In this document: in pieces, positions 12,583 to 47,763 of the stretch
Numbering within the stretch: position 1 is the first letter of the stretch
How the letters are laid out: the number at the start of each line of letters is the position of its first letter
Sequence record: MT446395.1
Length of the DNA: 52,087 nucleotides
Source of the DNA: Escherichia virus TH21
Strand: one strand, 5' to 3'
Position numbers and translations under genes: made by a program
The notes under the pieces: generated by a model
Databases searched by the model: none
Seen by the model: the letters and a program-made list of their open reading frames with translations, nothing else
Told to the model about the DNA's origin: nothing

Positions 12583-13311
12583 ATGATTGATTCAAACGAT
12601 AAAGACACTCATGACGCTTTCGTTAGCTTTGAGCAGATCGAGCGAGAAAACTTTATTACCAATGCGCTAGTTCCTGGTAACGGTCATTATCAAGCGGTTA
12701 AGCAGGACACCTTCTATCAGGTAACTGGAAACCGATACGCCGGAAGCAAGACTCCTGACGCAGTGCGTGACCTTTGGGCTACTGACAGAGAAGTGATCTC
12801 ATGGATGGAATCGCGTTATGGGAAGTATGACATTGACGCCGCCGCCAGCGATAATAATGCTGTTTGCGAGAAGTTCTACAGCGAGCAAGTGAACTGCCTC
12901 AAAATCTGGTGGGGTAGCAATAAGCACATCTGGCTTAATCCGCCGTACTCTCATCCAGATCCTTTTGTGAAGAAAGCGATTGAGCAAATGGAGCACAACA
13001 ATCAGATTGATATGTTGCTTCCTGGTGATAACTCAACGGCGTGGTTTGCCGAAGCCCGACGCAATTCGGCTGAAATAATCTGGATTGAGGCTGACATCAC
13101 AGAGATTGACAGTCAGGAATATTGCCGGACGGGGAGATTGGCCTTCATATCTGGACTGACCGGAAAGCCTGTCGATGGAAACAATAAAGGCAGCGTGATT
13201 TTTGTCATGCGAAAACTGCAAGAAGGCGAGACGCAGAAAACGACATACGTTAGCGTCTCTGATATTTGCCCTGGCGTAAGCCGTAAGAAACCACGTAAAC
13301 GGAGTGTTTAA
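12583..13311 (+). CDS. dam: DNA N6-adenine methyltransferase (Dam-like)
   Basis: 242 aa; NPPY catalytic motif (IWLNPPYS). Confidence 0.75.
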   Translation: MIDSNDKDTHDAFVSFEQIERENFITNALVPGNGHYQAVKQDTFYQVTGNRYAGSKTPDAVRDLWATDREVISWMESRYGKYDIDAAASDNNAVCEKFYSEQVNCLKIWWGSNKHIWLNPPYSHPDPFVKKAIEQMEHNNQIDMLLPGDNSTAWFAEARRNSAEIIWIEADITEIDSQEYCRTGRLAFISGLTGKPVDGNNKGSVIFVMRKLQEGETQKTTYVSVSDICPGVSRKKPRKRSV

Positions 13312-17724: not shown

Positions 17725-19308
17725 TTACCCCAGCAGTCGCGGATTAATGTAAATTTTATCACCAATCAGGCACGTATAGTTTTTCTCATCCAGCATAGGG
17801 ATCAGATGGTCTTTGATGCGAGTCATTACACCAGCCTGGCCCTCGAATGGCTTAACCTTACGCGCCGCTTCATATAGGGATCGGACACCTACAACGCCTT
17901 TCCCGTTCTTGCCTTGCTTGATCAGGATGTCAATAAGCTTGTTCATCTCCGCATGGTCGCCAGCGTGACCAGCAGCGTTTGCAGATGACAGATAAGTTTT
18001 ACTCAGTTCCTGGAACATAATTACAGCTTCTTGCATTGTATCAAGCTCAATCTCTCTGGACTTCTGCGGACTTCCGCCATTGGGATTGAACCAGTTACGC
18101 ACAGTGTGAAGAACCGCCGCGATCCTGATGGCCTGCTTATCAAACTTACCAAGCGCGCCGCGAAGCATTGTGTGTGAATACTTCCCGCCGTCCGCAAGGT
18201 GAGGTTCCATATCCTGACGCGCACGGTTGAGATATTTCATCGCCGACGTGCTCACTGTCAGGTTGACTTCGTGTTCGCTCATGATCTCATGGACCAGACG
18301 GAAGTAGTCCGCCTTGAGTCCGCCATCAATCGGCTCATATGTTGATTCGCCTTTTTCGTCAACGAATACACGCTCGCCAAGGAATGACTTCTCACGCACA
18401 AGCAAGAAACGTTCTGACACACCGATACCACGCGCACCAGCATTCATGATCGCGTTGATTGTTTCATCCTGTGCAATTACAGAGATGCAACCCATAGCGA
18501 TAAAGCTCATGTTATTGTCTGCGTTCGCACGCGCGATAGATACGTTACCAGCATCCCATGCCTTAAGCACAAGTTCGCTGTTCGTTTTCTTTGAGCCGTC
18601 ACCATAGGTCATGCCTAACAGTGAGTTTACGCTCGTTGCTTCATCCGAGATCACAGAGAAGTTCCCCTGGCGGTTGTTGATTCGCGCCAGACCTTCCGGC
18701 GTGGTGTCGGATACGGGGAATACGATGTCACAAAGGCGTTCCAGTTTTTCTTCCAGTTCTTCTTTTTCCTCAAACAGTGCCGCCATGTCGGACGGTGATT
18801 TTTCCTGCTTCATCTCCTTGGATAGAGCAGATAGTTTAGCCATAATCTTCTTGCGGTCGCGCTTTCGGATCTCGTTGAGTCGTTCAGTCTCTGCGATCAT
18901 CGGGGCCAGCGAAAGTGAGTTAATGGCTGATTTACCTGTCGATGGTGGCTGACTGGTTACGACGTAAAGCGCGGTCGGCTGTTGTGTTCCGTGATACTCA
19001 ACCGTAAAGCGGCCCAGCATGGCGGCTGATATGCATCCGAGGAAATGCATGTAAGCGGACGACTCGGGGAACTGAACTGAACGAGCGGCATTGCTTGACA
19101 GCTTACCAACGACATCATAATCGTTACCAAGTGAGATAACCGGATATTTGTCACCGCCCGAGTCGATTTCTGTTGGTGCTTTCCAGAACGACTGGCTTTG
19201 CCTGTACCCGTTCGCATTGATGGCAACGCGCAGGGGCGGCAGGTTATCGGCGGCGGCCACAGCCATAACCTGATCGATAGACAATTTATCTTCGTTAAAA
19301 TCAAACAT
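17725..19308 (-). CDS. P-loop NTPase, possibly VirE/DUF3987-like primase-associated helicase
   Basis: 527 aa from ATG 19308 (AAGGAG 7 nt upstream); Walker A-like SQPPSTGKS; N- and C-terminal segments recur in 24573..25127. Confidence 0.45.
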   Translation of the reverse strand: MFDFNEDKLSIDQVMAVAAADNLPPLRVAINANGYRQSQSFWKAPTEIDSGGDKYPVISLGNDYDVVGKLSSNAARSVQFPESSAYMHFLGCISAAMLGRFTVEYHGTQQPTALYVVTSQPPSTGKSAINSLSLAPMIAETERLNEIRKRDRKKIMAKLSALSKEMKQEKSPSDMAALFEEKEELEEKLERLCDIVFPVSDTTPEGLARINNRQGNFSVISDEATSVNSLLGMTYGDGSKKTNSELVLKAWDAGNVSIARANADNNMSFIAMGCISVIAQDETINAIMNAGARGIGVSERFLLVREKSFLGERVFVDEKGESTYEPIDGGLKADYFRLVHEIMSEHEVNLTVSTSAMKYLNRARQDMEPHLADGGKYSHTMLRGALGKFDKQAIRIAAVLHTVRNWFNPNGGSPQKSREIELDTMQEAVIMFQELSKTYLSSANAAGHAGDHAEMNKLIDILIKQGKNGKGVVGVRSLYEAARKVKPFEGQAGVMTRIKDHLIPMLDEKNYTCLIGDKIYINPRLLG

Positions 19309-19378
19309 TAAAAAACTCCTTAGTTGGTGCGCTAATGTTAACGCACCTATGGTAAAACCGCTTGCCAAAAAATGCTAC

Positions 19379-19796: not shown

Positions 19797-19813
19797 TTTA
19801 GCAATTCGTGCTA
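19797..19813 (-). promoter_or_regulatory. cassette palindrome TAGCACGAATTGCTAAA overlapping the stop of the methyltransferase-like gene
   Basis: followed on minus strand by hairpin agccc-ttcg-gggct plus T-run, TATATT, leader ATCGAAACGAAAC. Confidence 0.5.
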
Positions 19814-20494
19814 TTTGGTTAAATGATTTGCCAGGTATACGGCGCGCGCAAATCCACGAGGAGTCAGTGAGCGCAACTGCTTGGTTTTTGCAGACTTCCC
19901 GCCGAGGTACTTCCATCCCCAAAAGAATCCAATGTTAATCGGGCCAGGCTTCTTCACTGGCTCAACGAATCCGTTACCATGCCAGATGCAAGTTTTCTTC
20001 GTGTAGCCGTCGTATTTCGGCATTTTTTCGTGGTACGGAAGATCGTGAGCTTTCATGAGTCCGCCGTATTCATACGGATTGAAGTAGAAGTCAGGCTTAC
20101 GCCACAGGCTTGACAGCTTGCCTACCGGATTCTCGACCATCCAGGGTGCCTGGAAGTGATTTCCGACTTCCTCGACGAGCTTCGCATTAGCCAGGGCGTA
20201 CGCCAGTTCATCATCACTGCGCTCATGCTGTGATCCAGACTGAGAGAACAGCGTGCAATCAGGGAATCCGATAACCATCTGCGCCGGAGGAAGGCCGAGC
20301 AATTCACACTTGGTAATGAAATCCTTGTCAATCCACATGTTGACGTAGTGAATGTTCTCATGCTTCATCTTGATGTGATATTCGCCATGATTGCCGGAGT
20401 CCGCGTTGAAGCAGTAGACGGTGTGACCATCTTCCGCCCATGGGAGGCCAGCGATACCAGAACCGTCGAACAAGCAGTAAATTACCTTTTTCAT
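19811..20494 (-). CDS. C5-cytosine methyltransferase-like protein (short, orphan)
   Basis: 227 aa; motif I-like CLFDGSGIAG, motif IV-like GFPDCTLFSQSG, motif VI-like VENP, in canonical order. Confidence 0.4.
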   Translation of the reverse strand: MKKVIYCLFDGSGIAGLPWAEDGHTVYCFNADSGNHGEYHIKMKHENIHYVNMWIDKDFITKCELLGLPPAQMVIGFPDCTLFSQSGSQHERSDDELAYALANAKLVEEVGNHFQAPWMVENPVGKLSSLWRKPDFYFNPYEYGGLMKAHDLPYHEKMPKYDGYTKKTCIWHGNGFVEPVKKPGPINIGFFWGWKYLGGKSAKTKQLRSLTPRGFARAVYLANHLTK

Positions 20495-20649
20495 TTCTTC
20501 TTAGCCTTCTCAATTGCTTTCTGTGTGATTTCGTAACTGCTTTGCAAGTCTTCAACCTGAGCGCTGGTGCTCCATGGATGCCATCCTTGACCTGAGAGCT
20601 TCGCGATCGTGTCGTTGTCGTAGTAGTTCAAATCGGATGGCTTGAGCAT
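20491..20649 (-). CDS. hypothetical small protein (52 aa)
   Basis: not in ORF track; ATGA overlap with downstream gene and TAATG overlap with upstream gene. Confidence 0.35.
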   Translation of the reverse strand: MLKPSDLNYYDNDTIAKLSGQGWHPWSTSAQVEDLQSSYEITQKAIEKAKKK

Positions 20650-43716: not shown

Positions 43717-46623
43717 ATGACAGATAAATTTGCAGGGCTATCGCTTGGGGTTGACGTATCCCAGGTTGACGCGGCGGTTAAATCTCTGGATGACTTATCC
43801 AGGGCGAACGGCACAGCCGGAAAGAGCTTTGACAATTTCATTGATGCCGAGCAAGTCGCAAAGCAGAAGATGAAAGAGTTCAACAACGAGGTGAAGCGCC
43901 AGAAGAAGGAGTTCTCTGATGTAGAAAAGGTCATAGACCCTACAGCGAACAAGATGCGACAGTTGCAGCAAGCAAGTGTGGATCTGGATAAACTCTGGAG
44001 TAAGGGCATGGTCCCAGACAAGGAGTTTTTTAACCTTTCAAGCATGATTGAGACTCAGATTAACGCGCTTAATCGTTCGAAACTTGCCATGACAGAAGAA
44101 GGTCGGGCGGCGCTGGAGAACTCAAAGGCAAAGGCCGCAGCAAAGAACAGCGCTGATTCATTCCTTAAATCACTAAGGGATCAGGCGAACGCAGCTACCA
44201 TGACAAAGCAGGAGCTATTGGAGCTGAGAGCCGCAGAGCTTGGAGTGACAGCTCAGGCCGCTCCATTTATCGCCGCAATGAATAAGCAGGCAAAGGCTAC
44301 AAACGTCGCTGGGCTTTCTGTTGGTGAGTACAAAAACGCAATGCGTATGCTACCAGCTCAAATAACTGATGTGGTTACTTCCCTTGCGTCAGGGATGCCT
44401 GTGTGGTTGGTGGCTGTTCAGCAGGGCGGACAGATCAAGGACTCATTCGGCGGCGTAGGCAATACATTCAAGGTTCTGCTTTCATACCTGAATCCAGTGA
44501 CAGTTGGGATGACTGCGATGGGTATTGCGCTTGCTGGCCTGGCTAAAGCTGGTTACGACTCCTACCGCTCAATTACAGATATGAAAAATGCCTTGATTGA
44601 AACTGGCGGATTTGCAGCGGCGAGCGCGGCGGACCTTGATCAGATCGCAAACAAGATTGCAGATACCAGCAACGCGACTATCGGATCTGTTCGAGATATT
44701 GCAACTGAACTAGCAAAAAGCGGTAAGTACACTCAGGACCAAATCAGGAATATCACCCGCGCCACCGCTGAATGGTCAGCCGCAACGGGCCGAGCTACGA
44801 GCGACATTATAAGTGACTTTGGCAAGATTGCAGATGATCCGGTGAAAGGGCTTGCGAAGCTGAATGAGCAATACAACTTCCTGGAGAAAGGCCAACTGAC
44901 ATATATCAACGGGATTGTTAAAACCAAGGGCGAAACCGAAGCTGCGACGGAGGCGACCAAGCTGTTTGCTGACACCATGGAAGAACGCATGAGCAAGATT
45001 GCAGGCACTGCAACGCCGCTTGAAAAAATGTGGACTGACATTAAGAAATGGTCATCCGACGCTTGGGGTTGGGTTGGCGATCATACACTCGGCGCTCTAA
45101 ACCTCATCATTGATGTGGTTAGCGGTACGGTGATTCAGGTAAAAATGATTCTCGCCAAGGGTGACGAATACATTTCTAACTTTATCGCATCGGCAATAAA
45201 GGCAACGCAAAGCCTGCCTGGTATGAGTGATTTCGGTAAGGATATTCTCAACGAACAGCAGACTATCGTTAAGAACTCCAAAGACACCTATGACAGCCTC
45301 GCAAAAGATCTGGACGTGATTAACGCGCGAGTAGAAAAGGGCGAGATGGGTTACATCAATGCTCTAAAAGGACGTCGTGATCTGGAGAAGCAGTACAGCA
45401 AGGAGACTAAGGAGGCCGTAGAGAAGGAAGCTAAAGCGATTGAGGAGCAAAACAGGAAGAAAGCAAAAAGCAGCAGCGGAGTCACCAAGGGCGCTACAGA
45501 GCAGCTTGACAAAGAACTTTACATTCTCAAAGCTCAGCTAAAAGTACTCCAGGAACATAGCTCTATAAACGACAAGATCTCAAGTCAAAGGAAAGCTCTG
45601 TGGGCTACTGAGGCTCAGATTGCAATCCTCCAGGACGCGCAGAGTAAGCGCAAACTTACCAACGAGGAAAAGGCATTGCTCGCCAGTCAGCAAAAGGTGT
45701 TATCGCTATCGAAGGAGAAGGCCGAGTTAGGGGATCAGATTGTCCAGCAGGAGCGAATTAACAAGCTGAATGATGAGTCAATGAAGTTCATCATGCAGAT
45801 TGACGCAGCGAGTAAAAGCCTTAACGCCACGCGAGCTATGGGTACTCGCGAAGCTGAGCGGCAGATTCAGCTAGAGAAGATTAGGGCTGACTATATGTCA
45901 AAAGGTGGCGGCGCTGATGACTCTGCACTGTCGAACATGATTGATAAGCAGAAGGAGTATTACGCGGAAGAGGATCAGCTTCGTGGTGATTGGTTAGCTG
46001 GGGCGCAGCGTGCATTCGCCGATTACGGAGAGAGTGCAAACGACATGAATGCAAATGTATATGACGTCACAATGGCATCCCTTAACGGAATGAGCGATAT
46101 GATGACCGAGTTCTTGATGACTGGCCAGGCAAACTTTGCCGACTTTGCAAAGAGCATTATCAGCCAGATCATTAAGATGATCACGCAGATGGTAATCTTC
46201 AACTCACTATCTGGAATGGGAATAGGCAGCGGCAAGGGATTCTCTTTCGCTAACTCAGGGTGGTTCGCCACTGGCGGTTACACCGGAGATGGCGGCAAGT
46301 ATGAGCCAGCAGGCACGGTTCATAAAGGTGAGTTTGTCATGACCAAGGAAGCTACCAAGCGAATTGGCGTCGATAACCTTTATCGAATGATGCGCGGTTA
46401 TGCTAATGGCGGCGTGGTTGGTGGAACAACAATCGGTGGCGGCGGTAGTGCAATCATGGCTGGCGGCGTGACAATCGGAAGCATCCCTGTTAGCATAAAT
46501 AACGGTAGCGATCCGAAGGGCATGGAGCAGGGCGTGAAAATGATTTTCAAGCAAATGATTCAGGAATCATGTGCCCAGGGTGGCGAAGTTTACAATTACA
46601 TCAACGGAAAAGCAGGAGCGTAA
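43717..46623 (+). CDS. tape measure protein
   Basis: 968 aa; coiled-coil-rich; hydrophobic segments; follows chaperone. Confidence 0.8.
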
Positions 46624-46626
46624 TAA

Positions 46627-46974
46627 ATGGCACTAGACGTATTCAATTGGTGCGTACAGGTTCAGGATGGTGGCGGTGTGATGACCGTCACCAACAATGA
46701 CAGACAGGTGCAGTTTGGTAATGGATTCCGCCAGGTTGCATCGTCTGGCTACAACACTGAGCGACGAGAGTACGCAATCAGTTACGTTGGCAAGGACTGG
46801 AAAGAGGTGCGCGAATTTTTGCGATCGCACAGACTGAAAGCCTTTGCCTTTACCCCACCGGAGGACAAGATCGGCGTCTTCCTATTGAAGCCTGACACGC
46901 TTAATACTCAGCCAATCGGTCGAGGTCTTCTTGTCGTAAAATGCACCATTGTAGAAGCCTTCACAGCGGTGTAG
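46627..46974 (+). CDS. minor tail protein (lambda M-like)
   Basis: 115 aa; position after tape measure. Confidence 0.55.
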   Translation: MALDVFNWCVQVQDGGGVMTVTNNDRQVQFGNGFRQVASSGYNTERREYAISYVGKDWKEVREFLRSHRLKAFAFTPPEDKIGVFLLKPDTLNTQPIGRGLLVVKCTIVEAFTAV

Positions 46975-46980
46975 AATAAA

Positions 46981-47001
46981 GCCTCCTAACGGGGCTTTTT
47001 T
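46981..47001 (+). terminator. intrinsic terminator
   Basis: hairpin gcctc-ctaac-ggggc plus T6. Confidence 0.5.
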
Positions 47002-47016
47002 ATTGGAGGTAATCCC

Positions 47017-47763
47017 ATGACACCTAAGTTTGAAAACGTATTGCAGGGGCTATTCCCTGGTGAGATCATGACGCTAATCGACGTTGACGGAACTAAATTC
47101 GGAGCGCAGGTCTACCGATTCCACAACGAGAACATCCAGTTTACGCCGGAAGAGATTCTTGCAGCAACACAGCCAGGCGGGAGCCTTAAGCCAAAAACAA
47201 TCACCTTTCAGGGAAATGAATATGGCGCACGCCCCTTCGGCATCTCTGGCATTGACTTAAATGGTAATGGCAAGGCCGGAAAGCCTCAGCTATCACTATC
47301 TAACCTTGATAGCCGCGTGTCGGCGCTTATCCGGTCCTACAACGGCATGATGCAGGCCAAGGTGACTATCTGGATAACCTCACGCGAAATGCTAGGCAGT
47401 ACAGGCAACGTTGCGGCTGGCGACTTCCGAAAATACGTTTACTACGTTGAGCGACCGAACTTTGTGGATCAGAACCTTGCGCGATTCGACCTGACTTCAC
47501 CATATGATATGGACGGAATCATGATCCCGCCGCGAGTGACTCAGAGTGTTTGCTTTTGGGCGCAGCGTGGATGGTATCGAAGCGGACGCGGTTGCGGTTA
47601 CAATGGAAGCCGGATGTTTGACAAAGACAACAATCCAGTAACTGATCAGTCACAGGACGTATGCGCAGGAACTGTAACTGCCTGCAAATTACGATTTGGC
47701 GACAAAAACGAATTAGATTTCGGCGGCTGTGCGGTCGCATCACTTGACAGGAAAAACCAATGA
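47017..47763 (+). CDS. minor tail protein (lambda L-like), Cys-rich C-terminus
   Basis: 248 aa; C-terminal Cys cluster. Confidence 0.6.
   Translation: MTPKFENVLQGLFPGEIMTLIDVDGTKFGAQVYRFHNENIQFTPEEILAATQPGGSLKPKTITFQGNEYGARPFGISGIDLNGNGKAGKPQLSLSNLDSRVSALIRSYNGMMQAKVTIWITSREMLGSTGNVAAGDFRKYVYYVERPNFVDQNLARFDLTSPYDMDGIMIPPRVTQSVCFWAQRGWYRSGRGCGYNGSRMFDKDNNPVTDQSQDVCAGTVTACKLRFGDKNELDFGGCAVASLDRKNQ

Follow-up and report, generated by a model that had tools for sequence, protein, structure and literature searches.

A probable miniature cytosine-5 DNA methyltransferase of the PHROG 757 family encoded by Escherichia virus TH21

Genomic context of the methyltransferase gene

The window analyzed here is the whole 52,087-nt stretch of DNA from Escherichia virus TH21 (MT446395.1), in which the region of interest shares 84–93% nucleotide identity with T1-like Escherichia siphophages (Drexlerviridae). 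A minus-strand open reading frame with an ATG start (19811..20494) encodes a 227-aa protein of PHROG 757, annotated here as an orphan C5-methyltransferase gene, and the closest copy of the protein was that of phage TH30 (97.8%). Directly upstream lies a 52-aa ORF of phrog_4548, a family of unknown function (20491..20649, minus strand). As read from the DNA, the stop codon of this ORF overlaps the methyltransferase start codon in an ATGA sequence, an arrangement also found in ESCO41, which suggests that the methyltransferase is translationally coupled to the upstream ORF. Downstream lies a DNA helicase gene (17725..19368, minus strand) identified by DUF3987 domain and phrog_2373 matches, so that the methyltransferase gene sits in a minus-strand block of replication genes. 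The order methyltransferase, small ORFs, helicase is kept in haarsle and in ESCO41 (genus Nouzillyvirus); in the latter, further small ORFs precede the gene, which is labeled ‘DNA methyltransferase’. A second, Dam-like methyltransferase had been noted elsewhere in the genome by the initial annotation, and domain searches bore this out, with the plus-strand gene at 12583..13311 matching PF05869 (E=1.2e-59) and phrog_111, as expected of a T1-type Dam N6-adenine methyltransferase. This Dam gene is also present in ESCO41 and T1.

The C5-methyltransferase-like gene is accessory, being absent from T1 and from many loci whose helicases are 89–93% identical. In T1 (44517..47037), an HNH endonuclease is encoded directly upstream of the helicase, where the methyltransferase is missing. 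The locus thus behaves as a slot for variable accessory genes.

Sequence motifs and conserved residues

The motif I-, IV- and VI-like strings described in the initial annotation were all located in the 227-aa product, the FPDCT and ENP codons being checked in the DNA, with CLFDGSGIAG corresponding to residues 7–16, GFPDCTLFSQSG to residues 76–87 and VENP to residues 120–123. Conservation was counted in 78 diverse family members sharing 29–54% identity with the TH21 protein, among which C80, E121, P123, P140, Y164, K166, T168, W171 and P179 were invariant. Motif I, F9-D-G-S-G13 (20456..20470, minus strand), was assigned from family alignments as the AdoMet-binding loop; it fits the FxGxG pattern, of which the family consensus is a looser form ([F/Y/C]-D-x-[T/S]-G), and hhalign sets it on LFAGlGG of M.HhaI in an alignment below significance. 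Motif IV, F77-P-D-C80-T (20252..20266, minus strand; codons TTC CCT GAT TGC ACG), aligns to GFPCQ of E. coli Dcm, the segment beating 98.5% of shuffles in this comparison. Cys80 (codon 20255..20257), present in 78/78 diverse members and the counterpart of C82 in the Dcm of phage K42 (see below), is the predicted catalytic nucleophile; the Pro-Cys dipeptide itself is absent, as Asp79 precedes the Cys. Motif VI, E121-N-P (20126..20134, minus strand; codons GAG AAT CCG), is ENV-like and aligns to the ENV of Dcm and M.HhaI, with E121, N122 and P123 conserved in 78, 75 and 78 of the 78 members, respectively. Glu121 matches E128 of K42 Dcm and is predicted to protonate cytosine N3.

The C-terminal part of the protein departs further from the canonical pattern. 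The QxRxR form of motif VIII was not found, and local alignment to the motif VIII regions of Dcm and M.HhaI was no better than for shuffled sequences. In its place is a strand carrying Y164-T-K166-K167-T168 (19991..20005, minus strand), which we infer to be the motif VIII equivalent; Y164, K166, T168 and the nearby W171 are invariant, and the K166/K167 pair is equivalent to K175/K176 of K42 Dcm, which the K42 study treated as substrate-binding and mutated. A large target-recognition domain is absent, as only about 25–35 residues (~175–205) separate motif VIII from motif IX. This interval contains a variable loop (residues ~175–200; 19895..19972, minus strand) with the highest entropy and the largest indels of the family alignment, making it the candidate target-recognition region; it is conserved inside the TH21 clade, yet unlike that of haarsle and K42. 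Motif IX, R208-S-L-T-P-R-G-F-A-R217 (19844..19873, minus strand), is identical to Dcm RRLTPRECAR at 7/10 positions, a score equaled by 10 of 2000 shuffles (beating 99.5%), and its R208, S209, P212 and G214 are nearly invariant in the family. Only ~10 residues follow, without a clear GN motif X, of which A222-N223 (N in 61/78 members) is a possible remnant. At the end of strand 2, residue 30 (codon 20405..20407, minus strand), presumably the ribose-binding acidic position of motif II, is Asp in 74/78 diverse members and Asn in both the TH21 clade and the K42/haarsle type.

The Asp before the catalytic Cys had been described as an insertion into the usual Pro-Cys dipeptide. This description holds in comparison with E. 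coli Dcm and other GFPCQ-type enzymes, and only there does Asp79 look inserted. Within its own family, the majority motif IV is FPPCT, so that Asp79 replaces a Pro rather than being inserted. Specifically, the position before the catalytic Cys is Pro in 95/122 diverse representatives (78%), the others having E, V, D, S, T or L, and in the TH21 clade it is Asp in 95/118 sequences, the others having S or P. Judged from these alignments, Asp79 is a tolerated, clade-specific replacement for the second Pro in Pro-Pro-Cys and not a family-defining insertion.

Family membership, size and predicted fold

A profile search and structure prediction, both proposed as checks with the initial annotation, agreed with its methyltransferase assignment. 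phrog_757 (‘DNA methyltransferase’) matched residues 1–224 with E=9e-80, and the AlphaFold model (pLDDT 88.1, pTM 0.87) showed an intact AdoMet-binding fold of the AdoMet-dependent methyltransferase type, its best fold matches being C5-methyltransferases. Searches of the TH21 protein against Pfam and NCBIfam gave zero matches. For PF00145 (gathering score 22 bits), the TH21 protein remained unmatched even at E≤10, and only 1/78 family members matched at E<0.01. P0087, which is 60% identical to the TH21 protein and carries PPC, scored 27.3 bits against the threshold of 22, so that membership of PF00145 is reached transitively. Sequence searches against solved structures, run with the single protein and with two family-alignment profiles, found no methyltransferase. 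In hhalign comparisons with E. coli Dcm (E=0.48) and with a 108-sequence profile of the M.HhaI family (E=0.15 over 151 columns), motifs I, IV and VI fell in the right register in alignments that were not significant. Sequence statistics alone do not establish C5-METHYLTRANSFERASE identity.

The family is already known, widely annotated and partly characterized. Relatives were found by tblastn in 1,499 phage records, covering Drexlerviridae, Dhillonvirus, RB49-like, rV5-like and Vi1-like phages as well as phages of Vibrio, Campylobacter and Arthrobacter, under labels varying from DNA methyltransferase and cytosine methyltransferase to hypothetical. An exhaustive profile search gave 1,779 clusters at 50% identity, in which full-length members consistently had 200–260 aa. 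The initial annotation was right that the protein, at 227 aa, is much shorter than C5-methyltransferases usually are, and because full-length relatives are of similar size, the alignments indicate that shortness is a family trait and not a truncation. Some members (P0026, P0035 (328–329 aa), P0125, P0181, P0210 and P0223) carry N- or C-terminal extensions of ~100 residues, and a Pfam search of these extensions in five longer members gave no match. The domain is also found as part of very large phage proteins (BFVD A0A6J5SE15, 1397 aa; A0A6J5NPY6, 1126 aa), one of which is annotated with a helicase/UvrB N-terminal domain. The dN/dS of the methyltransferase gene was 0.03–0.11, showing that it is under strong purifying selection.

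Relationship to the characterized K42-type Dcm

Experimental information on this family comes from phage K42 (95.4% identity to KarlJaspers/Bas06), whose mutants escaping retron Ec86 all carried mutations in a 711-bp dcm gene (10.1101/2023.08.16.553469). In that work, expression of K42 Dcm set off retron Ec86/Eco1, and LC-MS detected 5mC on msDNA with the wild-type enzyme and none with a C82A/E128A/K175A/K176A mutant (10.1101/2023.08.16.553469). Later papers accept a phage-encoded cytosine methyltransferase as the activator of retron Eco1. The haarsle gene is likewise 711 bp long, its DNA is 93% identical to the KarlJaspers ‘Dcm-like C5 cytosine methyltransferase’, and its product carries C82, E128, K175 and K176 exactly as published for K42. 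The TH21 protein aligns end-to-end with this haarsle ortholog (42% identity, E=2e-62), pairing C80 with C82, E121 with E128 and K166-K167 with K175-K176, and the K42 type, at this 42% identity, is the nearest experimentally tested protein to the TH21 clade. The two belong to one family and agree in architecture and size (227 vs 236 aa); both are orphans encoded upstream of the helicase, and both have Asn at the end of strand 2 and YxKKT. They differ in motif IV, which is FPDCT in TH21 and the canonical FPPCT in K42. The loop between motifs VIII and IX also differs in length and sequence, so that the target specificity of the TH21 enzyme may differ from that of K42.

The protein is thus highly likely to be an active, stand-alone SAM-dependent DNA cytosine-5 methyltransferase belonging to a miniature ‘phage Dcm-like’ family, PHROG 757. 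This identification rests on the fold, the conserved catalytic residues, the orphan context, purifying selection and homology to a characterized enzyme. The reading of the gene as an orphan C5-methyltransferase had been put forward in the initial annotation, and it is borne out by the fold, the invariant residues, the transitive Pfam membership and the 5mC data on the 42% homolog. By analogy with this homolog, the TH21 protein itself would in all likelihood be active. Set against this identification are sequence statistics that do not place the TH21 protein directly in PF00145, the Asp before the Cys, Asn30, YxKxT in place of QxRxR, the lack of a clear motif X and a recognition half that is a swapped cassette unlike that of K42.

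The deviations from canonical motifs, together with the lack of a Pfam match, could be taken to indicate a degenerate or repurposed methyltransferase-like protein, inefficient at DNA methylation and acting for example as a DNA-binding protein or decoy, since PDC breaks the Pro-Cys dipeptide, Asn replaces the strand-2 acidic residue and neither motif VIII nor motif X has its canonical form. However, Cys80 and Glu121 are invariant in both family and clade, the position before the Cys varies freely (P/D/S/E/V/T) among obvious relatives, and the AdoMet-binding fold is intact and modeled with confidence. The active K42-type enzyme also has the strand-2 Asn and YxKKT, so that Asn30 seems compatible with activity. 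Given the invariant catalytic residues and a dN/dS of 0.03–0.11, an inactive or repurposed protein appears unlikely.

A less probable reading still is that the enzyme makes a modification other than 5mC, either by transferring a non-methyl group (carboxymethyl from Cx-SAM, as CmoX does) or by acting on RNA, tRNA or ssDNA, for example, rather than on dsDNA; a different base modification had also been raised in the initial annotation. CmoX (PDB 8yf3) has 372 aa, uses Cx-SAM via Arg350 at the position of M.HhaI Asn304 and usually occurs with cmoA and a ligase (PMC12783734). E. coli supplies Cx-SAM. The homolog of the TH21 protein, however, produces 5mC, and Arg208 falls within motif IX. In the close relative ESCO41, which is fully annotated and has both Dam and the methyltransferase, the annotation lists neither cmoA nor a ligase, and no TET-like or restriction genes. 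These observations argue against another modification. That the gene is the methylase half of a phage-borne restriction-modification system, for which nothing speaks beyond the presence of a methyltransferase, was rejected as extremely improbable, since its neighbors, the DUF3987 helicase and small PHROG families without assigned function, showed no nuclease domain in Pfam and PHROG searches, and the same orphan arrangement recurs in haarsle and ESCO41.

C-terminal cassette and target specificity

An identity profile against ESCO41 revealed that nt 1–420 of the gene are 85–98% identical, nt 421–660 only 54–75% and the sequence just downstream 86–95%. The divergent segment (19835..20074, minus strand) covers motif VIII, the variable loop and motif IX, and this profile points to a sharply bounded C-terminal cassette exchanged by recombination between close relatives. 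Such a swap suggests that DNA recognition is modular. The TH21 clade is distinguished by F-P-D-C instead of F-P-P-C, together with its distinct, horizontally exchanged C-terminal cassette.

The target itself can be named only tentatively. For K42 Dcm, CCWGG was assumed by analogy with host Dcm and not measured; the one test was a mutation of CCTGG in msDNA, carried out in a dcm-plus host whose own Dcm evidently gave no equal methylation (10.1101/2023.08.16.553469). CCWGG is a possible target of the TH21 enzyme, at somewhat less than even chances, and a target different from, or looser than, the CCWGG assumed for K42 is rather doubtful for its clade. The window contains 140 CCWGG sites compared with about 64 expected (~2.2-fold over-represented) and 3 CCSGG (CCCGG/CCGGG) sites (1833, 9004 and 28960) compared with about 54 expected from dinucleotide shuffles. 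T1, without the methyltransferase, keeps CCSGG (65 sites). CCSGG was also depleted in 15 T1-like loci that lack a methyltransferase in the 11–21 kb examined (ratios 0.0–0.79), and most T1-like loci examined deplete CCSGG with or without the gene. These methyltransferase-free loci show that the loss of CCSGG does not depend on the gene, and two explanations were rejected on this ground, namely purging of CCSGG with CCWGG protected by the enzyme, and creation of McrA targets by CCNGG methylation. The pattern suggests a widespread CCNGG/CCSGG-type restriction pressure, from which Dcm-type methylation would shield the CCWGG subset. Several 6-bp palindromes are wholly absent from the window, including GTCGAC (10 expected), GCCGGC (8.5), GGATCC (7.2), CGGCCG (6.4) and GAGCTC (5.5). 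Such absences fit restriction-site avoidance and suggest that avoidance does much of the anti-restriction work.

Discussion

Compared with PF00145 enzymes such as M.HhaI, M.HaeIII and E. coli Dcm, the TH21 protein is about 100–250 residues shorter and lacks the large target-recognition domain; its YxKxT stands where these enzymes have QxRxR, a clear GN motif X is missing, and its similarity to them is below significance. E. coli Dcm is a protein of 472 aa with an N-terminal domain, and its gene overlaps vsr, whereas the TH21 gene has neither this domain nor vsr. Orthology to E. coli Dcm was considered and rejected, as there is no significant similarity, N-terminal domain, large target-recognition domain or adjacent vsr, and the name ‘Dcm-like’ expresses functional analogy, not orthology. 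The catalytic domains of DNMT3A and DNMT3B share only 13–18% identity with the protein, and DNMT3 enzymes are oligomers with regulatory domains; nothing here points to a specific evolutionary tie beyond the shared superfamily. A DISARM preprint that names T1 along with a cytosine methylase deals with the methylase belonging to the host system itself and has no bearing on this gene.

The mechanism would be the canonical one. Cys80 would attack C6 of a flipped-out cytosine while Glu121 of ENP protonates N3, the methyl group would move to C5 from AdoMet held at the FDGSG loop, and the enzyme would be freed by beta-elimination. With no large target-recognition domain, recognition would have to lie in the short variable loop (~175–200) together with motifs VIII and IX, which would read the DNA. 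The likely benefit to the phage would be progeny DNA methylated at the target site whatever the Dcm status of the host, blocking the cognate type II restriction, and an anti-restriction role of this kind is moderately likely. The initial annotation went further in expecting broad protection against restriction from two orphan methyltransferases. This is not supported by the BASEL study, in which most Drexlerviridae were very sensitive to restriction-modification and resistance followed no pattern with methyltransferase genes, nor by the absence of the gene from many close relatives. In a relative, the activity has a known cost, as it can methylate the msDNA of retron Eco1 (Ec86) and lead to abortive infection; that the TH21 enzyme could likewise trigger the retron is conceivable by analogy, with the odds slightly against it.

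The main value of the present analysis lies in annotation: the family as a whole escapes Pfam and NCBIfam, so that many phage records label the gene ‘hypothetical’. The enzyme can alter phage sensitivity to restriction and to methylation-dependent nucleases, and as the methyltransferase of a relative lets retron Eco1 detect infection, the presence of the gene helps to predict the host range of therapeutic T1-like phages. If the TH21 clade did recognize a different or looser target, these proteins of ~225 aa would rank among the smallest C5-methyltransferases that are self-contained and sequence-specific, with a DNA-reading loop of ~25 residues that phages would exchange as a module to change specificity.
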